DNA of 64,000 nucleotides from Octopus vulgaris (taxonomy: Eukaryota). The notes below the pieces were generated by a model. It saw only the letters and a list, made by a program, of their open reading frames with translations, did not search any database and was not told the origin of the DNA. The translations under genes were made by a program, and so were the position numbers. This document shows, piece after piece, positions 3,439 to 51,546 of the stretch. Numbering within the stretch: position 1 is the first letter of the stretch; each line of letters opens with the position of its first letter. The DNA lies in assembly GCA_951406725.2 (NCBI GenBank), contig OX597815.1:204166001-204230000 (forward strand), given 5' to 3'.

Positions 3439-4050
3439 TACAATTTGATGCCTTTAAAGGATAATTAACTTACCAGATTGTGGATACAATCTATATAATT
3501 ATGACTTTCACTAAAATATCCTTCGCTGCACAAACGCATTTCTATTTAAAGAAATTGGATTTGATTACTAGAATTGATACTGCTGCAAACACTATAATTA
3601 TTCGTGTACTCGCAGACACACGCACAAACACACAACACAAGAATCACACAATAAAATGACACACATTCTCACAAACAACTACAAATATACATACATACAT
3701 ATATGAGTGTGTGTGTGTGTGCGCGTGTGTGTGTGTGTGTGTGCCTGTGTGAGTGTATGCGTGTGTGTGTGTGTGTGTGTATGCGTTTGTGTGTGTGTGT
3801 GTGTACACCTGTGTAAGTATTCGTAAAATACACAGGAGTGTGTTTTTATGTAAAATATCCTAAAGGCGGCTCAATAGATGCAAAATATAGCAAGAACAGG
3901 AACACATAACTAATATAAATGTAAATAAAATTTATTAAATCATGATGTACATATCATCTAAAACCACATACATTTTTTTTTACAGTGCACGCAACCATAC
4001 TTCTGCTAGATAAATAAATGAAAAAATATTCATACACACACACACACACA

Positions 4051-14018: not shown

Positions 14019-15001
14019 GGTCCCGGGTTGAGTCGGGGTTAACCACAGTAAATAAGGTACTCAATACATAGCAGGGTAAATTAATTTATTTTATAGAAGG
14101 AGCTTCTACAGGACTAGAACTGTTTCATTCAAAAGAAATCACCAGGAAGCTAGTAGACAAGAGTTGTTTTGGCATTTATACATTTAGGCAGGTTTAAATG
14201 GGTGGTGGTGGGAGACTTTTTTGGGGGTAGGCATGGCCCAAAACTGTCATTATTAGGGGAGTGGTCAAAGGAATCGGTGGTAAAGTAGATAAAAGAATAA
14301 ATAAAAGAATAAAAGAATAAAAAAATATAAAAATATAAATAGAAAACTAGAGTTTTAGGTAAGTGGGGAGACTCTCACTTGTACATCTACATATATATAT
14401 ACATACACATATACACACCCGCATATTCACATATATCTATGCATATACATACATACCCACATATACATACATATATATATACATACATACGTACACATAC
14501 ACATACATATATATATATATACATATATCTACATATATCTACACATACCCATGTACGTACACACAGATACACATATACATACACATACATACACATATGT
14601 ATACCCACTCGCACATATATATACAAATGCATATACATGCACGCACATACACACACAATGTTATTCTCTTATTTTAATTTTATTAACTACTTTTGTTTAT
14701 ATCTTTATTTTTATCTTGACCGGTCAGCTTGTCCCAAGGGATCTCTAAAGATTCCGTTTTTCTATCTACTTACCGATACGAACGCAAGCACTCACTCACG
14801 CCCACACATTCACACGTACACACACGCACGAGTTATATTCATACACGCCTACATCTACATACATTCACGTATATTCACATACACGCATACACATACATAC
14901 CTCAACACACCCACAGAAGACTAGTCCATACATATACACTAATTAATATATATACACATATACATGTACACATACATACACATACATACATATACATACA
15001 C

Positions 15002-15033
<32 letters not shown>

Positions 15034-15105
15034 ATACATATTCATATACATATACATACACATATACACTCATACATATATACACATACACACATACATA
15101 TATAT

Positions 15106-15143
<38 letters not shown>

Positions 15144-15375
15144 CGGGAAGCTTTATGAAAAAATATATATATATACATATACATACATACATACATGCGT
15201 ACACACGCACACACACGCGCGCGCGCATCTATATATACACATAAGTACATACATGCATAAATGTATACATATGTCGATACATATGCATACACATCCGCAC
15301 ACACATGCGCCTCCTTATGTTCATAAAAACATACATGCATACTGGCATATACATATATACATACATGCATACTCA

Positions 15376-15410
<35 letters not shown>

Positions 15411-15550
15411 TATATACGTGCAGTTACCCATTATTCAAACGGATACCTACATATAAACATACCCATATATATCTATTTACACATATGTATATATACATAC
15501 ATACATACACACATAACTCTACATACTTACATATACATAAACACACAAGC

Positions 15551-15625
<75 letters not shown>

Positions 15626-15705
15626 TACACACACACATATATACACATCCATATACACATATACACATACACATATACACACACATACACACACATATAT
15701 ATATA
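14016..15705 (-). mobile_element. Non-coding hammerhead-bearing element (Penelope pLTR/retrozyme-like), left arm of large inverted repeat
   Basis: Reverse complement of ~17335-18888, with unique blocks nearly identical; extends ~70 bp further at its 3' end (14016-14085). Body is TA/CA-rich low-complexity sequence with no real ORF. Confidence 0.7.
14101..14151 (-). ncRNA. Type I hammerhead ribozyme motif with mutated core (CUGGUGA)
   Basis: Minus strand: agcttc CTGGTGA tttcttttgaat GAAA cag ttctagtc ctg TA gaagct; identical to 18822-18872 except A6G in the core. Confidence 0.65.
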
Positions 15706-15711
15706 TATATG

Positions 15712-16702
15712 TATAATGACATCATCAAGCACAGCAACATAAAAATCTTTGCAGATGATTCCAAGCTACAGAAGGTCATAAATGAGGCGAGTGACCGGAC
15801 ATGCCTTCAGTCAGATCTACTGGCTGTTATCCAATGGGCAGAAAAAAACAATATGCTGCTGAACGAGGATAAATTTGAATTAATCCACTTTGGAAATGAG
15901 GATGCCCTGAAACTCCCATACTCCCTTCCTTCAGGTGAAACTCTCGCGGCGTCCAACAACATCAGAGACTTGGGAGTAATTGTGGACAACAACATAAGCT
16001 GGGCCACTCATATAAACACCAAAGTTGACATGGCCCACAGAATGTGTTCCTGGATTCTCAGAACTTTCCAGTCGAGAGATATCCACACCATTATCCTTCT
16101 CTTCTCCACTTTTGCCCGACTCCACCTTGAATACTGTTGTCCACTGTGGTCTCCCCACACAATACAAGGTATCATAAAAGGGCAATCACAAAAAAGATAG
16201 ATGGCATGACAGGCCTCGACTATTGGGGTCGACTAGAAAAGCTAAAACTCTATTCTCTCCAACGTCGTCGTGAGCGCTACATCATCTGCATGATGTGGAA
16301 AATATTCCATCAGCATTGCCCAAATGATGTTGGCATCACCTTTAAGGTACATCCAAGGCTTGGGCCCCGTGCCATCCGCCCAAAACAAAAATCGCACTCT
16401 CATCGCATAACAACAATACGGCACAATTATTTCACCTCAATTGGCCCCGCTCTCTTTAACATTACACCAAAACACATTAAAAAAGAAACTGACCCTATAG
16501 GGTTCAAGAAGTCTTTGGACAGATTCCTTCAAGAAATCCCGGATAAACCCCCTACACCCGGATATGACTCTGTAAACAATAACTCTCTACTTGAGTGGGA
16601 CATAGTGCCCAAATTCTGACTTGAAAGACTTCACCAGGTGGTGCTATTAAGTTAGACATGGCCTGGGCCAATAATGGCCGAAACCTATCAAAGTATCAAA
16701 GT
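15712..16702 (+). mobile_element. 5'-truncated CR1-group LINE (RT from the FADD motif to the 3' tail)
   Basis: [28 protein letters not shown], then after a frameshift YWGRLEKLKLYSLQRRRERY...SLDRFL; short tandem tail tatcaaagtatcaaagta. Confidence 0.9.
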
Positions 16703-17185
16703 ATATATATATATACATTTACACACACATTTTTACACATATATATATATACACACATACACATACACACACATACACATATATATACATATATATATAC
16801 ATATATATACATATATACATACACATGTGCATACATACACATATATACATATATATACATATATACACATACATACACACAAGCACATACATGCATAAAT
16901 GTATACATATGTTTATACAAATGCATACACATACACACACTCACGCGCCTCCTTATATACATAAATACATACATGCATACAAACGCATACTCATGTAATA
17001 AATAATGAATAATAAATAATAGATATATATACACATGCAGTTACCCTTTGCACAGACGGAAACATACATATAGGCATACACGTATATACCCATCTACACA
17101 TATGTATATATACATACATACACATACACACAACTCTACATACTTACATATACATAAACACACGAGCGTACACACATATATATAT

Positions 17186-17230
<45 letters not shown>

Positions 17231-17334
17231 CACACACACACACATACATATACATACATATATACACACATACATACACATACATACACACATACATACA
17301 CATATATATACATACACATACATACATACACACG

Positions 17335-19085
<1,751 letters not shown>

Positions 19086-19585: not shown

Positions 19586-19607
19586 GCAGTTCTAGTATAA
19601 TAGATAT

Positions 19608-20004
19608 TTTTTCTACTCTAGGCACAAGGGGACCGAAATTTGTGGGGGTGGGGGCTGTCGATTATATCGACTCTAGTACCAAATTGGTTCTTAAGTTTTC
19701 GTCTCTGAAAGAATGAAAGGCAAAGTCGACCTCAGCGGAATTTGAACTCGGAGCATAAAGACAGACGAAATACCTATTTCTTTACTACCCACAAGGGGCT
19801 AAACACAGAGGGAACAAACAAGGACAGACAAATGGATTAAGTCAATTATATCAATCCCAGTGCGTAACTGGTACTTATTTAATTGACCCCGAAAGGATGA
19901 AAAGCAAAGTCGACCTCGGCAGAATTTGAACTCAGAACGTTCGCAGACGAAATACCGCTAAGCAGTTCGCCTGGCGTGCTAACGTTTCTGCCAGCTCGCC
20001 GCCT
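19608..20004 (-). mobile_element. SINE family B dimer
   Basis: Two tandem units with the gtcgacctc.gc.gaatttgaactc core; probable TSD tagtataata.atatt at ~19593 and ~20007. Confidence 0.85.
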
Positions 20005-20014
20005 TGTAGTATAA

Positions 20015-20428
20015 TAAATATTAACTATAAACACTAATATATTTGCTTTGTATATTTTCCGGAGGCTACAATGGTGTAGTGGAGTATATAATTCTCATAT
20101 CGCCGGTGTTCAACCACCTTAGAGTCATGGACACGTGAGATAACTCACCCTCAAGCACATTTGGGAATGATGGAGATTGATATTTCGCCATCACAAAATG
20201 TGGTTTGTCAGCATCATGCACCCGTCTGGTGACAAGCCACGAAAATGGCGAAGCATCGATGTACATCACTCCCAAACGGGATTGAGGATGAATTATTACA
20301 CCTGTCTATGACTCTAAGGTGTTTTTAACACCGGCGACATGAGAGTTATATACTATGCTTAGCCACTGCAACCACGGAAAATACAAAATGTAAATATTGA
20401 TACATTAGTATATCAATTTAATAATATT
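20015..20428. mobile_element. MITE-like element with long imperfect TIRs
   Basis: agtatataattctcatatcgccggtgtt...ttagagtcatggaca (from ~20083) pairs with tgtctatgactctaaggtg...aacaccggcgacatgagagttatatact (to ~20354); the inverted similarity extends outward to ~20015 and ~20428. Confidence 0.7.
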
Positions 20429-20440
20429 CATACATACATA

Positions 20441-20487
<47 letters not shown>

Positions 20488-20608
20488 TAGCAGCATAGCC
20501 CGGCGTTGCCCGGGTATGTAAGAGCCCCTAGTAGGCAACGACTAATCCCAATGTAGTCCTTTCCCTCCAGGGAACGAAGGTGCATGTGGACGTTGCAATG
20601 TCTTGTCT

Positions 20609-23600
20609 TCACTGGAATACTTCTGTATATACGATGTTCCTAGCTGTCCGTTTGGGCGAAAACATGAAAACATCATTGCGCCTCCCAACGCGTGAACAGC
20701 CCACGTAGAGTTGACCGTGGGCGAAGCACTGTTCGCCCAAATGTAACCCAGCGACTTGTAGCGTTTGGCCTTGGGATTTATTGATGGACATTGCGAAGCA
20801 GAGTTTAACAGGAAACTGAGAACGCCTGAAGTGGATTGGTAGGTCAGCGCCCGACGGTTGAAGGTGCATCCGTGGAATGAAGACGTCCTCTCCCTTCCCA
20901 CAACCGGTAAGTATTGTGGCCGTTATTAAATGTGGTGCCAAATGTTTCACAACCAAACGTGTGCCGTTGCACTGTTTAGGTGGAACCAAATTCCTGATGA
21001 GCATAATGGGCGCACCGACTTTTAACTTCAGGATGTGTGGTGGCAGGCCTGACGGTTCAAGTGAAATCAGGAATTCAACAGGATAATCGGCAAGCTGGGC
21101 GGGGTCTGCTGTCCTATCTATAGATTTGTAGACGTGGACATCACCAGGAATAGCTTCAAGTAGCTGGATATTGATGGAGTTGACGGTTGTATTTTTGGGT
21201 GCGAGAATAGCTCTGCCTGCCAGCCATTTTAGGTCGCGTAAATTGTTTTGTAGGTCGTGGAAGACAGCGTCCCGGAGGCTAGCAGGGGTGTCGACAATGG
21301 TGCAAAGTGAGTCCAATTGAACGTAGCCATCCGCATCAGACAGCATCCTATTTTCACCGAGCGATAAGAGGTCCCTGGAGAATGCAGCGGATCCGCTGTC
21401 ACCAATTAACTGCGCGCGCATGTTAGTTTGGAGGTGCAAGGGCCGCACATGTGCCCAAAGAGCTGACGACTTAAGGCACGCGCGCACGGCATCGGCACGG
21501 GTTCCTTTTGGAATAACAGGTAGAGTCTGCCTGAAGTCTCCTGAAAGAAGTAAAGTTAATCCTCCCATGGGGGCCGTAGAGTCTCTGATGTCTTGCAGGG
21601 ACCTGTCCAGTGCCTCAAGGGCTCCTTCGTGTGCCATAGTGCACTCGTCCCATACGATGAGTTTGCATCTGCGCAGAATGTCGGCCTGTTCTGAGTTCTT
21701 GGCGATGTTGCAGATAGGTGACTCAGACTTTGCCAGATCGAGCGGGAGTCTGAAGGCAGAGTGGGCGGTTCTGCCACCCGGAAGCAACGTGGCTGCGATA
21801 CCAGAGGAAGCTACAGCCAGGGCAATGTCCGTGTTGCGTCTGACCTCTGCCAGAATTAGTTTAGTGACGAAGGTTTTGCCAGTGCCGCCGGGTGCATCAA
21901 GGAAGAAAATCCCCCCACGTTGCTGTCTGACAGAGTCTACGATGGTGTTGTAGGCTATGCGCTGGTCTGGAAGCAGCCGTGGTTCATTATCTTGGACGTA
22001 CTGGTGCAGTTCCTCAATGCAGTAGGAAGTTTCGCGTAACAATTCAGCAGACATAACATTGGCGTGTTCACGTGTGGGTGGTGGAAGGCCGTACTCTGTT
22101 AAAGCAGACCCACCCATATCGATGACAGCGTCTTCGAGTTGAATGAGCGCAAAATTGTAAATGAAGTTGGTGAACGTGATCTCGGCGGAAGGGCAGTGTT
22201 GCTGAGCCGTACGTAAGAAGTCGTGCGACATGTCATCCCTGTATTTCATCCAGAGACTTAGTGGATCACTAAGCTGACATTTTTGAAGAAGGATTGCGAA
22301 AAGATGTCGTAGGGCCGAATGCGTTTGCAGTAAAGCACCCTCTGCCATCGTGGCGTCCCACTGGGAGTCATCCTCTAGAAGGCCAAGTCTCATACATGCT
22401 TCCCTGAAGGTGTCGCACAGAACCCCATTGACGGTACGTATATTGGCGAAACCTGTTGGACCAGTGACCTCATGTAGAAGGAGACGGAGGTAGAAGCATT
22501 CTTGCTGGTTTGGCGGGATGTTGTAAACTCGACCCAGGCAGGAGTCAAACTTGACGCCTGGGAAGCTTTCGACGTTTTTGCCGGATTTCCGTCGAACCCA
22601 GGAGTTTTTAGACCACACGAAGTACGATGGGACCTGTGGGTACAAAAGCGTTCGAGCGAAGTCATCACGTTGGCATAATTTGAAGAAACCAGTCAACGTT
22701 GTGTCTTTAGGGCTGGTGGCTATCTGCACAGCACTTTGCTCTATGAAGTAAATCCGCTGTCCATTTTCCAAGTGTACAGCAAGCTGCACCACCGCCAGGT
22801 GTCTCTGATGGAGCGGGAAGCCGTAAATGCGCCAAAACGCTTCGTTGCTGCTGAGGTACCGGCCAGCCAAGTAGTTGGACACTTCGTCGCGACTGGTGGT
22901 CCTCTGGATGCTGAACATGGCAGCATCGCTGCCTTTGTTGATATATTTGCAGACATATTGTATTGACCTGATGGAGCTGCAGAACTCAACGTTGACGTGG
23001 GCTTTGAATATCTTCGACAGGAGAGGACAGTAGGGGACAATGTAGCTGTTGTCCACTTGATGTCGCCCAACCGTAATCGTGCGGCCTCCATTGGCTGGAC
23101 TCCTTCGTTTGTACAGCGGATACCCATCGCCGCCTGTTTGAGTCTCCAAAGTGAACCGTTTAGGGAATCCCTTTGAGCAGGCTAATCCGTTTTTGTAGCA
23201 TGGTGTGTTGGCGTAATTTGGTCCACAGGGCCCGTGTACCATGGTAGTGCGGACAATTTCGTAGAGTCCGGGGTCCTCATCGGGGTCAGGAATCTCGGCG
23301 GAAATGAATTTGTCAATGTCATTAGTCTCGATTTTATGAGTGAGCCAAATTAAGATGTGAGCATGTGGCAAGCCCCTCTTTTGCCACTCGACCGAAAACA
23401 TGTGGCACCTGACATGCCCGAAAATCTGACCCTTAACTATCAAATCCTTCATTTTGCCCAAATTCAGACGGAAAACCCTAGCAACGATGTCGTGTCGATG
23501 GGTGTGAGATTGACCCGGGAGGAGTTCGCGAGTGATTTCGTCGCAGCTGGGATTGCACGTGTAGGTGATAAAGAGGTCCGGCCGGCCGTAAATGCGCACG

Positions 23601-25480
23601 TAGGTCAAGGCGTCTTGGGTCCTTTCACGCATATATCGCGGTCCTCCCGTGAAGGTGGAGGGTAGAATGCATGGCTTGCCGATGTTGCGAGGGTCATTTT
23701 CTTGTTGCAAACCGTCACGGAGATGAATGTAGGAGTCGGAGCGAAGTTTGGTCTGATTAAGTTTAATGTATAGCAGCCTTTCCGATTCTATTTTTGCGGC
23801 CATGTCGACGGCGAACTGGTTGAATAGCTGACGACAACGGGGCAATAAGTTGAACTCACCCTCCCTGACCATGAACCGGTATGAGTAGAACGCCCTGCAG
23901 GAAACCGTCTTTGATGCCGCAGTAGTTTGATTGGAGGGCTGCCGTAAAGGAATTCCGAAGTGGTAGCCGTCTTCCCCATAAGGGAAAAGCAATGGATACT
24001 GAAGCGCGTCATAAGATCTGTGAGTCTCGCTGATCCTGTGTAGGTTGTTACCACGGGAGGAGATGATTATGTCACGGCTGTTGTGTTGCTCTCCGTGTAT
24101 GACTGCGGCAATTTCGTTGCACGCAGGTGCGTTGAAACGGCGTTCGTGCTCCCCGTGGGGTCGTTTATCAGCATCAATGACAACGGTGAAGTTTGGAGAT
24201 GGAGCACTGTCCAAGGCATATCTGAAGCTGCAGACGTAGCTGTTGATATCATGAAGCATGGTTTGGAGGCGGAGAAGAATGTCTTTGCGGGGAACATAGC
24301 TTGTACCCGGTATTATTCCAAGGCGTGCATCAACCTGGTGGTTGTAGTCGGCAATGAAGTATATTTGGAGGAAAGAAGACTGCTGAATCTCGTCTGGCAG
24401 AAGTGACCCAATAAGATGGTAGACCTGTCCCTGCACTTTGAAAGTAGGCATCCAGCCTTCTCTGGGAGGAATTTTGGCCCCGAAAGAGGTCATTTGGAAT
24501 GAGCAGTTGTACTTTCGAATTATTTCAAGGAATTGTGACAAATCGGGGGTTAAACCCGCCGCGAGATCCTTCAGTGGTTGAGGTGGTTCCCGTAGGGGTG
24601 GCAGGTCCACTTTGCCACCAGAGCAGCACAAACCAGGTGGCTCTCCGGGCCATTTCTTGGCTTTGCAAAACTGGCATACAATTGTCATTGACCCTATCTT
24701 GATGTCGTCACGCAAGGAGAAGTTAATTGTGGCGTCGTAGTTGAATGCTAGTGACAACCAGAAAGCGGGGGCAGGGGTACGTACACCACGAATGATATCC
24801 CGACGTTTGTTGATACTCTCAAGTCGAGTGCACCGTGCCTCAGCAGATTCAGATGCACGTGCGACAGCGGTAGCAGTGGCATCCCTTGAAAGCCTTTCAG
24901 CTCTCGCCTCAGCACCCTTTGAAGCCCTAGCAGAAGCAGTGTTAATGGCATGTCTGGATGTCCGAATAGTCCGTTGGTGTGGAGTTTCGGCAGATCGAGC
25001 CCTGGCTGTGTTTGCGGCGTTAGCAGCTTGGCGAGCTCTCCTCTGTTGAGGTGTTTCGGCAGCTTTGGCCATGGCTTTTTTTGCGGCGTCAGCATCTTGG
25101 CGAGTTCTCCTCTGCTGTGAGGTTTCGACAGATCGTGTCCTGGCGGTGCTAGTGGCGTTAGCCGCATTCCGAATGGCACTTTGTTCGGGGTTCTCGCGAG
25201 CTCTGCGGATGGAAGCACAGTAAGAAGCCCGCATGTTTTGGCTGGACTGTTGCTCTTTCGTCAACCTCGAGCGGAGGAAAGATCTGTACGCTGCGACCCT
25301 TGCAAGTCGGGTAGAACGGTCGCTAGTAGTTTCAGATGCCTGAGCAGCGGCATAACGGGAAGCTGTTTGCGAGGGGCGCAAGGCGGTTTCCTCGGGGGTC
25401 TCGCGTGCCCTTCTAGCCCTAGCAGCCGATGCCTTGGCCGTCCGAGGGCTGAGGAGGGTCCTTCTCTTCTTGGGTGGCAT
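20609..25480 (-). CDS. Helitron Rep/helicase (HUH endonuclease plus PIF1-family SF1 helicase), 1623 aa from MPPKKRR; frame open to 25750
   Basis: NLS-like MPPKKRR; Arg/Ala-rich ETxxQRxxR repeats; Zn-finger-like CQFC...CCSGGK; Rep motifs FITYTCNP, VEWQKRGLPHAHIL, YVCKYINKG; helicase motifs DAPGGTGKT, IVWDECTM, GDFRQTLPV, FAMSINKSQGQT, HGQLYVGCSRV. No stops or introns. Confidence 0.95.
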   Translation of the reverse strand: MPPKKRRTLLSPRTAKASAARARRARETPEETALRPSQTASRYAAAQASETTSDRSTRLARVAAYRSFLRSRLTKEQQSSQNMRASYCASIRRARENPEQSAIRNAANATSTARTRSVETSQQRRTRQDADAAKKAMAKAAETPQQRRARQAANAANTARARSAETPHQRTIRTSRHAINTASARASKGAEARAERLSRDATATAVARASESAEARCTRLESINKRRDIIRGVRTPAPAFWLSLAFNYDATINFSLRDDIKIGSMTIVCQFCKAKKWPGEPPGLCCSGGKVDLPPLREPPQPLKDLAAGLTPDLSQFLEIIRKYNCSFQMTSFGAKIPPREGWMPTFKVQGQVYHLIGSLLPDEIQQSSFLQIYFIADYNHQVDARLGIIPGTSYVPRKDILLRLQTMLHDINSYVCSFRYALDSAPSPNFTVVIDADKRPHGEHERRFNAPACNEIAAVIHGEQHNSRDIIISSRGNNLHRISETHRSYDALQYPLLFPYGEDGYHFGIPLRQPSNQTTAASKTVSCRAFYSYRFMVREGEFNLLPRCRQLFNQFAVDMAAKIESERLLYIKLNQTKLRSDSYIHLRDGLQQENDPRNIGKPCILPSTFTGGPRYMRERTQDALTYVRIYGRPDLFITYTCNPSCDEITRELLPGQSHTHRHDIVARVFRLNLGKMKDLIVKGQIFGHVRCHMFSVEWQKRGLPHAHILIWLTHKIETNDIDKFISAEIPDPDEDPGLYEIVRTTMVHGPCGPNYANTPCYKNGLACSKGFPKRFTLETQTGGDGYPLYKRRSPANGGRTITVGRHQVDNSYIVPYCPLLSKIFKAHVNVEFCSSIRSIQYVCKYINKGSDAAMFSIQRTTSRDEVSNYLAGRYLSSNEAFWRIYGFPLHQRHLAVVQLAVHLENGQRIYFIEQSAVQIATSPKDTTLTGFFKLCQRDDFARTLLYPQVPSYFVWSKNSWVRRKSGKNVESFPGVKFDSCLGRVYNIPPNQQECFYLRLLLHEVTGPTGFANIRTVNGVLCDTFREACMRLGLLEDDSQWDATMAEGALLQTHSALRHLFAILLQKCQLSDPLSLWMKYRDDMSHDFLRTAQQHCPSAEITFTNFIYNFALIQLEDAVIDMGGSALTEYGLPPPTREHANVMSAELLRETSYCIEELHQYVQDNEPRLLPDQRIAYNTIVDSVRQQRGGIFFLDAPGGTGKTFVTKLILAEVRRNTDIALAVASSGIAATLLPGGRTAHSAFRLPLDLAKSESPICNIAKNSEQADILRRCKLIVWDECTMAHEGALEALDRSLQDIRDSTAPMGGLTLLLSGDFRQTLPVIPKGTRADAVRACLKSSALWAHVRPLHLQTNMRAQLIGDSGSAAFSRDLLSLGENRMLSDADGYVQLDSLCTIVDTPASLRDAVFHDLQNNLRDLKWLAGRAILAPKNTTVNSINIQLLEAIPGDVHVYKSIDRTADPAQLADYPVEFLISLEPSGLPPHILKLKVGAPIMLIRNLVPPKQCNGTRLVVKHLAPHLITATILTGCGKGEDVFIPRMHLQPSGADLPIHFRRSQFPVKLCFAMSINKSQGQTLQVAGLHLGEQCFAHGQLYVGCSRVGRRNDVFMFSPKRTARNIVYTEVFQ

Positions 25481-25602
25481 TTTGGTGGATAGCAATGTGT
25501 TTGGCAAAGGTGTAATAAAAAGGAACACGTGGGGTAAGTATTTTGGTGGATAGCAATGTGTTTGGTAAAGGTGTAATAAAAAGGAGCTCGTGGGGTAAGT
25601 AT
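25481..25602. repeat. ~61 bp tandem duplication immediately upstream of the Helitron ATG
   Basis: tttggtggatagcaatgtgtttgg(c/t)aaaggtgtaataaaaagga..cgtggggtaagtat occurs twice in tandem. Confidence 0.9.
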
Positions 25603-26626
25603 CCGAAAATGTATAAAAATGTACAAAAACGGCCAAAAAGCTGGCAGCAATGTGAGTGACAACAACGAAAAAGTCAAAAGTGATCAAACTGAACAAACGA
25701 AAGGAAAAGTTTTTTGATGCACACGACAAAAGTGGTTTATAATAAACCAAGAGTTTGCAAGTAGCGTCCGAGGACCGTTAGGGTACGTCAAAAATTGAAG
25801 GTAAGACGTTTGGGGTGGTAGTTATAAAGAAAGTGTAAACAAAAAAAGTATTCGAATAACTTGCGGCTGCAGCAGCTATTAGCAGAAGTGGCGGTGTTGG
25901 GGGTAAAGTCTCGAATGTAATTTCTTCCTGGTAGGAATTGGTTGGACCGAATTATCGATAGCTAAAAAGGTCAAGTTGCGTCCCCTAGACAGTCTGGTTT
26001 GTGTTTAATACACAAATTTGTTTGCTATGTGTGCCACATATGATTAAATTAACCGATTTTTTCCAATAATGTATCCTATTGGAATAAAAAGGGTTATATA
26101 GCTCCTTGGAGCAGACATGATGCTCGTTGTGAAAAAAAAAAGATTCCTGCCAATTTGTGAAAGATATTGTCGAAAATATGTCATCTTGAATTTGAACGCG
26201 ATTTCCCAAAATGGCATGATTTTATCGATTGTTTCTGATGGTAAGGTATTGCATGGAAAACTAACGTCAGAATTGAGTTTCTTAGGGTAACATTAAGCTT
26301 CACCATGAGTTTGGTGAAAATCGATTGCAAGTTGTGAAAACTACCATAGATAATGCGTTGCATAAAAAAAGCTTAGATTCTCGAGTTGCGTCCCCTAGAC
26401 AGTCTGTGGTTCGTGTTTATGATTGTCGACCCCATGTCGAATTTATCAATTTTTTTCAGAACTGGGGGAACTTTTCAAAATTTTCGCTGCGTTAGTTTTG
26501 AATTATGACATTGGGCTATGTGTGTGTCAAGTTTCATCAGAATCGGTTGAAAGCCGTGGTCAGGGTGAGGGTACGAGAAAACAGACACACAGAAGCACGC
26601 ACAGACAAACTGCCGTTTATATATAG

Positions 26627-26661
<35 letters not shown>

Positions 26662-26854
26662 ACAGAGTAAGACAGAGAGGGGGGGTAGGTGTGAAGGAGG
26701 AGTAAGGGAGGGAATTATTCCATTAATTAATGGTTTTAACTTCTATAAATGCTAATTCAATTTTCATTTCTTTGTATAACTACTTGTGTGAACGTGTGTA
26801 TGAGTATACATACATACATACATACATACATACATACATACATACATACATACA

Positions 26855-43559: not shown

Positions 43560-46500
43560 CCCGCGCGGGGAAGCCGACAATATGGCGAGAGGAGGTGCAT
43601 GAGCGGGGAGGAGATCGAAAAGAATTGTGTAAAGAAACTTATATTAGATTCAGACGAGGAGAGAGAAAGACCAATACCGGCTACTACAAGGAAAAACATT
43701 AATGTACCAAGTTTAATGACGAAAGAGAAAGAAGAGGAAAAAAACCTTAGAAAAAGCTGGACTTTGTCGTTGTGGCAGGTGCTAAAGTTAGAAAGATTAA
43801 TTTGGCCAATGTGGAGGAACACAAATAAATGATGACAAGTGAGGGGCACGGAATTAAAGCAGCCCCTCCAAAAAGTATTCTTGAAGATATAGAGAAACAA
43901 AGAACTTAATATACAAGACCTATAAGGTCAAAACTAAGAGAATTGATTATGTGTTAGAGGCAGAGATTTAGAACTGCCTTAAGATTATTTGACATAAGAT
44001 AGTGTACCTAGCAAGAGGTAGAAGGTACGCGACGGTGAACGTGAGGATGGAGTCGGAGGAAGAAGTCGATTCCATTCAGTGGAACCCCTAAGAACGGAAG
44101 ACGTGATACTTCTACCCATATATATGGGTAGACGGACGTAGAAGATTACAATCAACAATATTCCCACAGAGGTGAACCCAGAGTGGCTCGTCGCGGCAGT
44201 GACAATGGGATTGGAAGATACAATATCAGTCCTGGACGCTACCGTGATGGAGCCATGAAGCTGACATGGGCAGCTTATAATTCAAGTCGAACAGACCACA
44301 CTGGAGGAAATTATTGAGACCTCCAAGGTAGGTGAGACCCGTCTGGTGGTGACAGTAGTGGGTCGCCAGCGTCGATGCTTCCAGTGTGGCAAAAAGGTCC
44401 ACTTCAGGGTAGATTGTAAGCCCAAGGAGGCTGAAAGAAGAAAGAAGAAACGGAGGTGGTGGAGATTAAACCTGCGACGCCGGAGCAGAAGACACCAATA
44501 CAAGTAGAAAAAAACACCAATGCCAGAAGAAAAAGTAGGAGAGGGATGGACTCTTGTGTAGAACAAGAGTAAATAAAGCCACCTTCCCTTAAAAAAGAGA
44601 AAGAGAAAACAGAGGCGAGACAGATTAAGAAACCGAAAAAACCTGAAAAGAAAAAAGAAGACTGTTGCTACATGGCGGTTCGAATCTCGAATAGAGATAT
44701 AGTAGCAACTGTCTCTGCAGAAAAAAATTGAGGAAGCAGAGAGTCAGAAGGAAGGGATTGAAATTTACAAAACAAATCGGAAAATTTATAATATTTTTGC
44801 TAATGAATTTCGTAAAGATGTTGACCCTTCCAGGTTGAACTTTAATCCAAAAATGTGCGAGCCCGGGAAAGAGAAGAAGAGGCCTCAAGACACCGACTAA
44901 AAAAGGTAGGTCTTTATGGCTGTTCGCTTAAGTTGTTTAAATGTGCGTGGCCTGACGTCGAGCTGGAAGCGAGGGTGCTTCCTAAATGACGTCAGGTCAC
45001 AATGCTTAGATGTTATTGTTGCCACTGAAACTTGGTTAAAAGGGCCAAGAGATCTGCTTCTGCTCCTGAAAGGCTACGATGAATTCATTTCTCCAGGCTG
45101 GGGGCGGGGATGGGGTGCTGGTCCTACTTAAAAGAAACCGAGTTTCAGAGAAAAATTTTTTTCTGATCCAGAAGGTAGGCTGGTCGTCTTAGACCTGATG
45201 TTCAGTTGTGGTAAGGAAATCAGGCTGATCGCGGTTTATGCACATAATTTGAATCATACTGATTATTACAGAGAGTTGGAGAAGTTTCTAGGCACATCTT
45301 AGATGTGTTAGGAGACGTTAACACTATTGTCGATGCACGCATGGATAGTGCTGGCTCAAATTCTGATAGGAGACCTAATAGTGGCTTCCGGGATATACTA
45401 AGTCGCTTTCAGCTAGTAGAAACCTACAGACTAGAATTCCCGGCCGCTTCATTGTAGACATGGTCAAATAGCGACGGGTCTTCTAGGTCTACATAGATAG
45501 GATTTTTATTAGAAAACTAGACAAAGATATAGTTACGTGTCCACAATATCATATGGTTAGTTACAGTGACCACAAGATGGTTACTTGTAAGCTGTACCTA
45601 GATAAGCTATATAGTAAGAGTTCCGGCTACTAGAAAGTCAAGTCCCTTTTAGCGATTGAGGAGTACAGGAACCGGATTAAGTTATTAGTACAGAGGGCGT
45701 TGACCGGTTCCATTCTTAACAACAAATGGTGGTACGCCCTCAAAAGAGCCATTAAATTCGAGTCTATTAGATATAATATAGGTTTAGTGGCTAGAGGGCG
45801 TAGGAAGGAAACAGAATTAGTTAAGGCCCTAGAGGAAGCCACGAGGACTGGAGAGCAAATCAGGTGAAGGTGAAGAGACTGGAGTTAAACCAGCACCTCG
45901 AAGCCAAATACATGGCGTGTATTGTCAGAGCTAGACTTCGTGCAATGTGGAGCAAGCGAAGACGCCGTGACTCGATGGTCTACCGTACGTGCTATTGCCA
46001 GACATGCTCGGATACGTACTGGCTAGCGTTTACATGAACTGGCAACAGAATGAGTTGATTCCCAGAGCCGTGCGCCGGGGAGCAGTGATGCTGGTCAGGA
46101 AGGACTCGGATAAGGGGAATAATATAGATGATTTTAGGCCCATCACTCTGCTGAGCGCAGAGGTGAAGATTTTGGCCAAGGTACTAGCAAAAAGATTGAT
46201 GCTGATAGCCTGATCGGGGAGGCACAAACATGTGCAGTACCTGACAGAACCATCCAAGATGATTATCTTATACACTACACCGTAGAACGGTATGGTAATA
46301 ATTCTGGCAAAGGTGGGGCACTGGTCCATTTAGACCAAGCTAAAGCATTTGATGGGGTAGACCATCGTTACTCGTTATACGTGCTCGCGCGGTTCGGAAT
46401 ATGTTTGTTTTCCTCAGGTGGATCATACAGTTGTACAACAATACCGACTCGATAGTTCGGGTGAACAGCTTTATTTCGAAGCCGTTCTGCATCAAACGGT

Positions 46501-47620
46501 CGGATCGCCAAGGGTTTCCCCTCTCCCCGCTCTTGTACGTGATGGCCCTCGAGCCATTACTGCAAAAACTAAGTGGCATCCCGACGAATCCAGGAGGTGG
46601 GGACCGGTTATAGCGTACGCGGATGACATCACTATCATCGTGATCAAGATGGAACACCTACAGAAATTTGGCGAAACCATTAAGGTTTACGAGACGGTGA
46701 CAGGAGCGAAAATTAACCGGGAAAAGTCAGTCGGCTTGCAACTCGGCACCTGGAGGGGCAAGTCGATGCCTTCGAATAGTGTCGTGTGACGCTGGGCGGA
46801 GGGCCCGGTTAAAATGCTAGGAATCGGTTTGGTTCAGATCTCCGGATAGAAAAGAACTGGACCGAGGTATCGGGCAAGGTGATCCACATAGTCAAGGCCT
46901 AGTCTTGGCGGTGGCAATCCTTGAGATGGAGGGCGAAAGTGGCCAATATGTTTATCGCATCGGTCGTCGTTTACCGTCTAATCTTCGTTCCTTGTCCAGA
47001 TTCGAAGTTGAGCAAGTTGGAGGGGCTAATATGCTTTTTGTGGAAGAACTCCACTCCACTTGTAAGACGTTCTATTTGCTGTCAAAGGCCGTTAAAGGAT
47101 GGGTTAGCGATGCCTTGGCTATTGATGCGCAAGCATGCGCTGAGGTTGAGGCATCTTTAGCTCTACCCGGATGGTGAACGGGTGTGGTCAACGCTCGCTA
47201 GACGGATGTTCCCCAAATTTACTAGTTTTGGTGGTAGAGAAAACTGGTTTCGTCGAAGATTGAGGTTGGGTACCTGGTTTACGGAGTGCCGTAAGGCATT
47301 TCTCCAGTTCCGCAACTCGAGCGTCGCCAGCGGTTTCGGTATCACTACGGCTTACTATTGTAGGTTGGTAGAGGCTGAAAATGATGATGCCCTGGGAAGG
47401 ACCCTGGGTCTCGATAATCAGTTAGACAGCCTGTTCCGAAGGACATTCGGGCCGAAGACACTGGATAACTTCCAAAGGTCTTTGGCCTGGCAGTGTTACG
47501 GAGGAGCCCTACTCGTTCAGGATAAGGTCACCAGACACGGCCACCCTGGGCCATCGGCCTGTCCAAGATGCGAGCGGGACATGGAAACCGTCCTACACGC
47601 TATTGTGCAGTGTCTGAGAG
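43560..47620 (+). mobile_element. Near full-length degenerate Tx1/L1-clade LINE (ORF1 zinc knuckle; ORF2 APE, RT, zinc finger)
   Basis: ORF1 relic with CFQCGKKVHFRVDC (~44375-44418). ORF2 from 44916 MAVRLSCLNVRGL, VATETW, LGDVN, DRIF, SDHKMV (APE); DFRPITLLSAEVKILAKVLAKRL, LDQAKAFD, RQGFPLSPLLY, AYADDI (RT); CPRC...ETVLHAIVQC. Many stops, frameshifts and a probable internal deletion near 45960. Confidence 0.9.
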
Positions 47621-49942
47621 TTTCATATGATTTCTCTTACTATTCTCTATGATCGTTTGCATACACGATATACTTTAATATATTTATTCATAGTAATATT
47701 AATGTAAACTAAATATTTATTATCTTATAAATTGTTCCCGATTTAGTATCATATTACATGAGATGCAGCACGGAATTTTGTCAGTGAACAGGTCACGGTC
47801 TCAAAGCGACGAAAATATTTTGACAAATTAAATTTAAATGTTGAAATGAATCTAACGGTTTTGTGTGTTTCTTAAATGGCTTATAAATACCTTTCACGCT
47901 GAAATTGTTTTCGTTCCAGCCCACGATCTCAGATCAGATCACTTGCTATGCAAGTACATCTCCGTAATATCATATTATTTATTCGCTAAATAACGTAATA
48001 CGGCCAATTGTATATCAGAATTAGTTGTTTAACACCCAACATTCTCTTAATCAATAGACTCACCAATGCTTATTGACATTCATTAGCTTAACTCTAAGAT
48101 TTCATGTTCTGAAGGTTTTGAATTCGCTCAGAATATTTTGAATTCATTCAGAAGAAAACTTACCCATAAACTAAACACAATGATATATGTCTGTGGAGTG
48201 GTAAAATAAAAGGAAAGAATTTATAAATTAGAGAGTAAAAATAAAATAAATTGAATATAATTTTTGGAAATAAAAGAAAATAAAATTCCGGCATCTAATC
48301 TCCGAACTCATTACCCATTTTAAAGGAAATAACCTAGTTAAACGTCCTATGATCTTTGACACTAACTCTAACATTGCCATAGCTGCTAGACTAATTTAGA
48401 AATACTCTTCAACAGTTTTTCATTCCTCTGAAACCTTGACATTTGGTTACCATCGGTTTCCAAAACAATTGCTTATGTATCATGGTCGACCTCTGATTTC
48501 TATTCTAAGATATTCAAGAATAGAAAAAAATATTTTGAAAATAAATCTATCTCGGCTGATTCATACCCATTAATATAGTTTGTTTTTTTTCTTTTGGTCG
48601 TTTGGGGCGGTGATTATGATGGTGTAATAGTAGTAGCAAGGGAGAAGCTAGAATTGTTGATTGCGGGAAGACTTAAAGGTTATAATGATAGTATTAGTAG
48701 TAATTTATGATGATTAAGTTCTTGTTATTGTTTTTGTTGTAGCAGTGTTAAGATAACGCATAAGAGTGAGGCTAAATTCAGGCGCTTCTTAATTTAGAAA
48801 AATGTTGTTGATTTTTTTTATATATATATATAAATTCAGTTGTTCTTGAGAAGGATTGGTTCTTTATAGGTTAAGTTTGCATGGGCTGCAAGTTGATATT
48901 AAGTCGTTGGCACTTTAATCTGTCATGACTGAGAAAATCTGTTAAATGTATCTGCTTCAATCCTTTAAGAAAACACGCTGACATGGTTGCTAGCATTACA
49001 TGTGCCTTGCAAACACATTTGTCAACGGTTCCCATAACATGTTGAAAGGTTAAAATAGATGAGTTCTATAACCCATTGGGTCGAAGGGGCTTCAGTTGGA
49101 AACTTTATCATTACGCAATGTGTATATGGTACGACAAATTATTTGTCCTCAGGCAATATTATTAACAGGATTGTAAAATGAAAATGCGTATTAAGCTATT
49201 GAATGATTTTTAGGGTTTGGTTTAGCTCCTACTTTATGACTTTAAATATAGATAAAAATAGGAATTCTAATTTAAAGCATCTTACATAATTTGGTAGCTA
49301 TTTCTAAGATGTTTTGGATTTAGAAACACGGCCTATAAATGGGTAACTCAATATGTTGGCAACGCGGCCACCAGCTTCTACGTGCAATCTTTCCCTCAAG
49401 GATTTGAACTCATTTCTGCTAACTGCAGATACGTCTGTCTGTTCCGTTTTTAATCCTCTCAGAGGAGAAATCTTTATCATGCGTATAGTATAATTGCACC
49501 GAATATCAAATAGCACGCATCAACCCAAACTCTAATACAAATTTTAGATAACAACTTTACGATAACGTAAATATAATTCATTGCTGAGATTTTGTCTTAT
49601 TTTTTTTTATTTCCAGTACAACTCATTTATTAGCAGATAACATTAATTGTATTAATTATTAAAAGAGTCTTAATAAAAGAATAACAGATGAAGAAATGCA
49701 GTTGATAGGCTGAAATCCTAAATGCTGTAATTGTGAGATCATTAAGTGAGAACATGTAAATAAACTGCCCAGCCGCATTAATTTTTGAACTCAATACCAT
49801 ATGTTACGATGCTATGCGTTGATCCCTGCAACTTAATCTTTTCATCTTCATCTGTTACAGAAAAAGATGTGTGAATAGTTATAGAACTAGTCTTGGTACG
49901 AGGAAAATACTATTAGCAATTATTACTCAATAATATAATATA

Positions 49943-50605: not shown

Positions 50606-51205
50606 TATCAGCTGGTATAACTTCCTAATGATAGAAGTCATCTGGTTTGGGAATATGTTTTCTCTAGTTTTCTTCTACACATGAAGCAGCAGGCCTTCTT
50701 TTTCTGCCTTTTCTTTCGGTTTCTTTTACACTGCTTTCCCCCCCACTTTAAAATAGATAAAATAACAAATATGACTAGTTCAAGGTCTACAGGAAAAGGC
50801 TTGTAAACAACCGGAAATAGTTTTAAAATCAGATTTACATTGCCCAATAGAGAGTTATTCAATGCCGAATCGTGACTATAAGCGAGATAAAGATTTTTCT
50901 TGGGAAAGATAAATACATTACCTACCGATACGAAACCTATTCGTCATATCAAATGTTTTCCAATGCCAGTTAGTTTACACAAGATAATATGATATTCGGC
51001 TGTTTTGGGGAGATGAAAACTAAAAATACGAAACTGAACTTTTACAAAAATGTATGAAATTATTCCAGACTCCGCAACATCTTCAGTCGCATTTATATTA
51101 CTTACTTAATTTCTTAATCGTTTTTGATAATTGCAGCCAGCAAAGTAAAAGTATATTTTAAAGAGATGACCTTGAATCTTGAAGACGCAATAGCAGTAAT
51201 GATAA

Positions 51206-51546
51206 TCTTTATATATAAAAGTGAGGTTGTGTGCTGTCTGTCTCCTACTATCTTATAGTCGTGATTCATATCGAGCCCTTCTGGGTATTAGCGCGCGTCT
51301 ACGATGAGTCTACGATTTTTAAAAAAATTATCATCAATTTTTCCCATTTTTAATGCATTTTTGGCATATATAAGGGAAGTAACTCTAAAAATTTATTATT
51401 AAATCTCAGAACGAAAAAAGCTACAGTAACACCCCCCCCCCTTTGTGTTTAGCCATATTGAGATAGCTATTATACTTTACATCTCTAAAAATGCTTATAT
51501 AGTTATTTCCCTTACAAACCCGAGCAACGCCGGGCGATACTGCTAG
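51206..51546 (+). mobile_element. Non-autonomous Helitron with canonical termini
   Basis: A|TCTTTATATATAAAAGTGAGGTTGTGTG ... cccgagcaacgccgggcgatactgCTAG|T; inserted at AT with no TSD. Confidence 0.9.

Follow-up and report, generated by a model that had tools for sequence, protein, structure and literature searches.

The element analyzed in this study is a Helitron located in a 64,000-nucleotide stretch of the Octopus vulgaris genome (assembly GCA_951406725.2, contig OX597815.1, positions 204,166,001 to 204,230,000 of the forward strand), here referred to as the window. Helraiser/Helibat1 is a reconstructed Helitron which loses function upon mutation of H593, H595, Y727, Y731, K1068 or R1457 and which itself favours AT-rich sites (PMC4778049). 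A natural autonomous Helitron, Feng8, was described in wheat and its activity was shown by circles and new insertions (PMC13286980). A preliminary description of the octopus DNA, made from the sequence without database searches, started from the premise that activity had mainly been demonstrated with a reconstructed element, which is dated in view of Feng8. Furthermore, STPRs have been reported as domains stably carried in HLE1, and almost exclusively there (HELIANO, PMC11417382). For O. vulgaris 84 Helitron families have been catalogued in all, with 178 recent insertions within 2% of consensus that belong to 8 families and comprise 765,802 bp (mean ~4.3 kb; PMC13282606). Young near-full-length Helitrons of this species as well as STPRs in HLE1 are therefore already known.

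The octopus element shares with Helraiser the TC/CTAG ends, the A|T target, a 3' hairpin ~11-12 nt from the end, a zinc-finger-like motif, an HUH motif with two tyrosines and a PIF1 helicase. In contrast to the reconstructed Helraiser it is natural, and its activity is putative. It carries nine STPR repeats and its N-terminal region gave no match to Helraiser (PDB 7LCC). The STPR domain is common to the HLE1 described with HELIANO, where the STPRs appear to sit in separate open reading frames (ORFs), whereas here they are in frame with the RepHel transposase. The wheat Xuan-Feng/Feng8 system is likewise a natural HLE1 with non-autonomous partners, encoding a RepHel of 1,676 aa; it is however a plant element with seven exons, while the octopus ORF is intronless and of putative activity. 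Cephalopod Helitron fragments from Acanthosepion pharaonis (P0132, P0173, P0174), Octopus sinensis (P0231) and O. bimaculoides (P0122, P0130) form one clade with our query. They are 56-68% identical and all partial, in contrast to the full-length element studied here, and P0174 has the N-terminus and STPR-like repeats in common with it. The recent elements of the O. vulgaris catalogue are young and near full length as well, and this family may be one of them.

We interpret the element as a full-length canonical Helitron that belongs to a family amplified recently. The family likely goes back to Helitrons resident in cephalopods for a long time, and rolling-circle peel-and-paste transposition is its predicted mode of spread (probability of this interpretation as a whole roughly 0.8). 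It is probably an ordinary resident transposon and not a recent arrival from another species.

Structure of the element and predicted transposition

The RepHel transposase is encoded by a single ORF without stop or frameshift (Table 1). Pfam families found above cut-off within it were STPRs, Helitron_like_N, PIF1 and Pif1_2B. The RepHel architecture, an HUH motif and two tyrosines fused to a PIF1 helicase, was evident from the alignments with PF14214, PF05970, PF21530 and 7LCC, the latter spanning aa 217-1605 (E 3e-260). The six essential residues of Helraiser correspond to H706, H708, Y842, Y846, K1202 and R1597, and all six are kept. Hence the uninterrupted intronless 1623-aa RepHel with HUH, dual tyrosine and PIF1 motifs proposed in the preliminary description was confirmed; as to its "all" PIF1 motifs, Walker A, the DE pair and motif VI were located by alignment.

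Table 1. Features of the octopus Helitron and its target flanks (positions in the window)
Feature	Position	Strand	Basis or detail
Full-length canonical Helitron (HLE1)	20487..26627	-	6,141 bp; termini and target read from sequence
5' terminus, TC followed by a short TA run	26600..26627	-	TC itself at 26627-26626
5' non-coding region, GC 0.38	25481..26627	-	contains a tandem duplication of 61 nt and a pair of 37-nt repeats (25960, 26370)
RepHel transposase ORF, 1623 aa	20609..25480	-	ORF list, Pfam, Helraiser 7LCC match
Nine 23-aa STPR-like repeats in exact register, aa 27-233	24782..25402	-	Pfam PF21107, predicted DNA major-groove binder
Zinc-finger-like motif C269-x2-C272...C285-C286	24623..24676	-	alignments
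HUH motif H706-A-H708	23357..23365	-	alignments
Catalytic tyrosines Y842, Y846	22943..22957	-	align with Helraiser Y727/Y731
PIF1-type SF1 helicase, aa ~1170-1623	20612..21973	-	K1202 (Walker A), DE 1278-1279, R1597 (motif VI)
3' GC-rich hairpin	20499..20514	-	5-bp arms 20499-20503 and 20510-20514, 12 nt before the end
3' terminus CTAG	20487..20490	-	sequence read
(TA)n-rich target flank, 3' side	20432..20486	.	repeat analysis
(TA)n target flank, 5' side	26628..26659	.	repeat analysis

Both termini and the AT target named in the preliminary description were recovered, within (TA)n flanks at which the contigs of public sequencing runs break. An A precedes the 5' end and a T follows the 3' end, so that the insertion lies between A and T as is characteristic of HLE1. 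The 3' end agrees with the HLE1 pattern of CTRR and a hairpin 10-15 nt upstream, although the fold is weak: the arms of the hairpin claimed earlier are present, but the last 60 nt fold no better than shuffled sequences (z -0.74; 44 of 200 shuffles fold equally well). The hairpin motif was found again in two of 75 related metagenome loci (L001 and L008) and likewise in two short elements elsewhere in the window. An assignment to HLE2/Helentron was ruled out, since the target is A|T rather than T|T. Additionally, no endonuclease was among the 7 Pfam families matched, the AP endonuclease being frequent in HLE2, and among 72 pairs of inverted repeats the longest 25 were TA runs and not terminal inverted repeats. 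The element thus shows every testable HLE1 feature and fails as HLE2. The 61-nt tandem duplication of the 5' non-coding region (25479-25600, copies 95% alike) ends at the start codon.

Helitron transposition passes through a circular intermediate. As termini, domains and catalytic residues match those of Helraiser, the mechanism can be predicted by homology (PMC4778049). The HUH/Tyr site of RepHel would nick the element at its 5' TC end and the PIF1 helicase would peel off one strand until the 3' hairpin halts it at CTAG, whereupon the product would integrate into AT-rich DNA between A and T. An internally deleted short derivative (~521 + 42 nt) is mobilised by the family as well. A natural, intronless and near-consensus animal RepHel could be assayed without ancestral reconstruction.

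Homogeneity and age of the family and state of this copy

Public sequencing runs were screened by sampled words of the element, and contigs were compared over positions 19600-26800 in the runs X4 and X8 (organism A), X13 (organism C) and X15 (organism D). Twenty of the 24 runs listed contained half or more of the sampled words (range 0.56-0.79); these 20 runs carry four organism labels and come from nine studies. None of the runs listed is on record as RNA. X8 may be one, but it covers the repeats of the flank too and was counted neither for nor against expression. In X4 the seven listed ORF contigs had depths of 2,433-2,680, compared with 14.2 in a flank contig of 300 nt that showed no difference. 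The resulting ratio of ~176, or ~88 if the flank contig represents one haplotype, is a rough scale taken from one flank contig per run. The depth summed over the termini, which reached 538,492 in X4, was not taken as a measure of copies. The family is multi-copy and homogeneous under three organism labels.

Only 26 of 4,872 coding bases (0.53%) of this copy differ from the majority letters of the family, which marks the family as young, as the preliminary description had suggested. The count was taken from 40 listed places out of 96 that differ, 26 of them in the ORF, and agrees with per-contig counts covering 20630-25480. Seventeen differences are non-synonymous and nine synonymous (pN/pS 0.58, p 0.24), indistinguishable from neutral. 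With the rate implied for octopus in PMC13282606 (JC 0.09 = 25 million years), if it applies, this copy is likely up to ~1.5-2.2 million years from the source of the family, an upper bound because some of the differences are subfamily variants.

A short derivative with the joint 20528-26107 was found in all four runs. It retains the outermost ~521 nt at the 5' end together with 42 nt at the 3' end (~560 bp), and its joint reached a depth of 1,751 in X4, similar to the full element. A second deletion joint (20566-26144) was found in X13. A CTAG-TC circle junction was absent from the 15 of 951 joints listed, a sample that carries no weight against circles. Furthermore, low-depth relatives in X13 and X15 differed at 13 of 268, 13 of 164 and 20 of 249 positions (5-8%), which indicates that older waves exist. 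In organism C the flank contig was 4 letters and 8 gap letters off in ~200 nt while element contigs were 0-1 off, although one short contig is too little for dating. A variant letter at 20938 was present in X4 and X8, the runs of organism A, and was not seen in X13 or X15, where contigs do not prove absence; it possibly reflects a subfamily amplified in one lineage.

The word "intact" applied to this copy in the preliminary description holds for the open frame and both ends. The chance of an open frame surviving 26 random substitutions is 0.37, so that it needs no selection, and judging from the alignments the copy is likely drifting and may be impaired by five substitutions at conserved sites. 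Protein relatives were taken as the best 120 of 3,342 full-length and the best 120 of 2,675 shorter proteins. At aa 314, 895, 913, 1285 and 1472, none of them catalytic, the residue of this copy occurs in none of the 120 full-length relatives, while the family majority carries the residue common to 94, 120, 92, 92 and 114 of them, respectively. In near-invariant columns the query departs at 17 of 338 (rank 6 of 121). To read all of these as decay was rejected, because most are common to the family or to the 84% identical relative P0155; the oddities C646 and N673 are shared with P0155 and hence are lineage traits.

That this copy is fully functional and a current source element would suit its open frame, its two ends, its six retained Helraiser-tested residues, the lineage traits just named and the share of synonymous differences, slightly over the neutral one, yet we consider it unlikely in the face of the five substitutions, of which Helraiser sides with the family at aa 314 and 1472. 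Moreover, 4 of the 26 differences resemble CpG decay, and no listed ORF difference is common to the main contigs, apart from four places close to the 3' end where this holds in part. On these comparisons, activity appears possible for the family and doubtful for this copy.

Origin of the family and base composition

The closest full-length relative was 58% identical to the query. Among the shorter proteins the closest were P0155 (84%) and those of A. pharaonis (68%), O. sinensis (66%) and O. bimaculoides (62%). Relatives from outside the cephalopods reached at most 61% identity, and the best named ones 54-56%, among the matches listed. In FastTree analyses with 190 and 162 of the 241 proteins the query fell within the cephalopod sequences (support 98 and 97). 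An IQ-TREE analysis of 36 rows, chosen as all named cephalopods, other named taxa and the nearest unnamed proteins, joined the query, P0155 and all six named cephalopod rows into one clade (100/99). The tree thus agrees with the host at the level of cephalopods, and as far as these sequences indicate the element is unlikely to have come recently from a distant taxon.

The metagenome scan covered 9 of 64 parts and gave 75 loci without a close DNA relative among them: the best segment reached at most 58% and the best DNA likeness ~67%. The exact 3'-end pattern gave 0 matches in the metagenomes, and no relative was found in viral contigs. Thus a near-identical copy in a distant taxon, as expected of a recently transferred element, was absent from the protein, metagenome and viral comparisons, all of them incomplete searches. 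The metagenome locus L008 contains a relative of 53% identity whose 3' hairpin is almost the same. At ~3591-3650 it runs via CTAG|TC straight into a Helitron-like 5' end, an arrangement to be expected from a tandem array, a circle or a neighbouring short element.

With regard to base composition, the ORF has a GC content of 0.518 and a third-position GC content (GC3) of 0.551, while the remaining window has 0.351, or 0.374 with tandem repeats masked. The GC contrast proposed in the preliminary description therefore stands. The CpG enrichment that it added was rejected: the observed/expected ratio is 0.88 in the element vs 0.87-0.90 in the flanks, so that the richness in CpG merely follows from the GC content. 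In 26 related metagenome loci GC3 ranged from 0.20 to 0.71, which includes this ORF. The contrast with the flanks alone is no indication of horizontal transfer. A GC content near 0.5 also occurs elsewhere in the window: a LINE at 45600-47650 (+), broken and with fragments of RT and zf-RVT, has a GC content of 0.49.

An older transfer between cephalopods, from decapod to octopod or the reverse, could have founded the lineage, with amplification later. Three cuttlefish (Acanthosepion) proteins join the query before O. sinensis with support of 91/88 in IQ-TREE and 60-90 in FastTree, and identity is 68% to P0173 vs 66% to P0231. However, this grouping is unstarred, protein identities of 63-68% mean a deep divergence, sampling is restricted to annotated fragments and several old parallel lineages fit equally well, so that we regard such a transfer as improbable. 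Even less can be said for the recent horizontal acquisition for which the preliminary description had seen a candidate, from a donor outside the cephalopods whose signature would be the high GC: the GC contrast, the homogeneous young burst, the at most 66% identity of named Octopus proteins among 240 matches listed and the known ability of Helitrons to cross species are outweighed by the cephalopod clade, the low identity of the best named non-cephalopod protein and of the best metagenome DNA, the 5-8% diverged relatives inside the same runs, the CpG ratio equal to that of the flanks and the GC3 range of related loci, which make it highly improbable. No paper on horizontal transfer of Helitrons in octopus was found by title or abstract.

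Several points weigh against our interpretation of a recently amplified, long-resident cephalopod family. The depth of contigs in public runs, by which the family was recognised as multi-copy, does not give a copy number. Not all of the 26 differences reflect decay: those at the four mixed 3' places and at aa 564 and 1611, where this copy carries the residue commoner among relatives, are subfamily variants, and others could be assembly errors. Helraiser also departs from the common residue at aa 895, 913 and 1285, and these sites tolerate change. In the IQ-TREE analysis the query is nearer to cuttlefish than to Octopus proteins, and the cephalopod rows are all fragments. Finally, the core protein is unusually GARP-rich (rank 3 of 121). 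In favour of long residence, five of the six closest relatives (P0173, P0174, P0231, P0130 and P0155, not P0122) show this GC-favouring bias too, their GARP share on shared columns being within 0.1 of the query.

STPR array and other elements of the window

The STPR array was absent from the preliminary description. It matches PF21107 with E 7e-12 (46 bits vs a cut-off of 27) and, weakly, silkworm FMBP-1 (5D23, E 0.008). In agreement with the STPR repeat pattern (Glu1, Thr/Ser2, Arg9), E1 is present in seven and R9 in eight of the nine units, which are underlain by DNA repeats of 69 nt. In precomputed hits PF21107 occurs in the same protein as RepHel in 14 of the 120 full-length relatives, and by a crude pattern at least two chained STPR units were found in 58 of 121 rows, the query counted.

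The array may bind the TA-rich 5' end of the element itself or AT-rich targets. The silkworm protein BmSTPR spans 4 bp per repeat in the AT-rich major groove, and (atac)n, (atat)n and (tata)n are among the nine best bound of 135 repeats (PMC4856987); nine units would accordingly give ~36 bp of readout. By analogy one may speculate that the octopus element belongs to a still-mobile natural animal family in which the array, as a safe-haven module, directs insertion to (AT)n/(ATAC)n microsatellites, an idea that we consider improbable. Its support is thin: this copy lies inside (TA)n, and of two short Helitrons of another family in the window one adjoins a TA tract. Moreover, 18-22% of the AT dinucleotides in the window lie within or beside TA tracts, which lowers the weight of this site, and a preference for AT-rich DNA is known from Helraiser already. 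The HELIANO passages give STPRs no role in target choice (PMC11417382). Likewise, no proposal of STPR-guided Helitron targeting was found in the literature on Helitron STPRs, FMBP-1 STPRs and Helitrons with TA microsatellites, which included few subscription papers and not the HELIANO supplements. If true, target choice set by STPRs would explain the persistence of Helitrons in microsatellite-rich genomes, and the array would be a removable targeting module, testable in Helraiser-type systems.

Apart from the Helitron no intact coding transposable element was present in the window, as had been claimed in the preliminary description. In the ORF list, 21 of 22 ORFs of at least 120 aa with an ATG start are not longer than 229 aa, and the 109 stop-to-stop pieces of at least 70 aa gave only broken RT/zf-RVT fragments and weak matches below cut-off.

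Two short non-autonomous Helitrons of another family are located at 36786-~37181 (-) and ~51205-51546 (+). Their 3' ends are identical to each other and agree with this element at 32 of 36 nt, and their CpG observed/expected ratios are 1.5 and 1.1. The former has a TA tract adjoining its 3' end, and the target of the latter is a plain A|T. A 3' fragment of an RT-type LINE in two frames lies at 15541-16619 (+), with the best match to O. sinensis (69%; 30 matches listed, two of them named). This match, independently of the Helitron, makes a cephalopod host likely, and the flanks rich in SINE-like repeats and microsatellites resemble octopus DNA. The simple-repeat block at 14439-15742 flanking it recurs inverted at ~17100-18300. 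Just left of the Helitron, a SINE-like repeat of very high depth is present in two pieces at 19600-20081.

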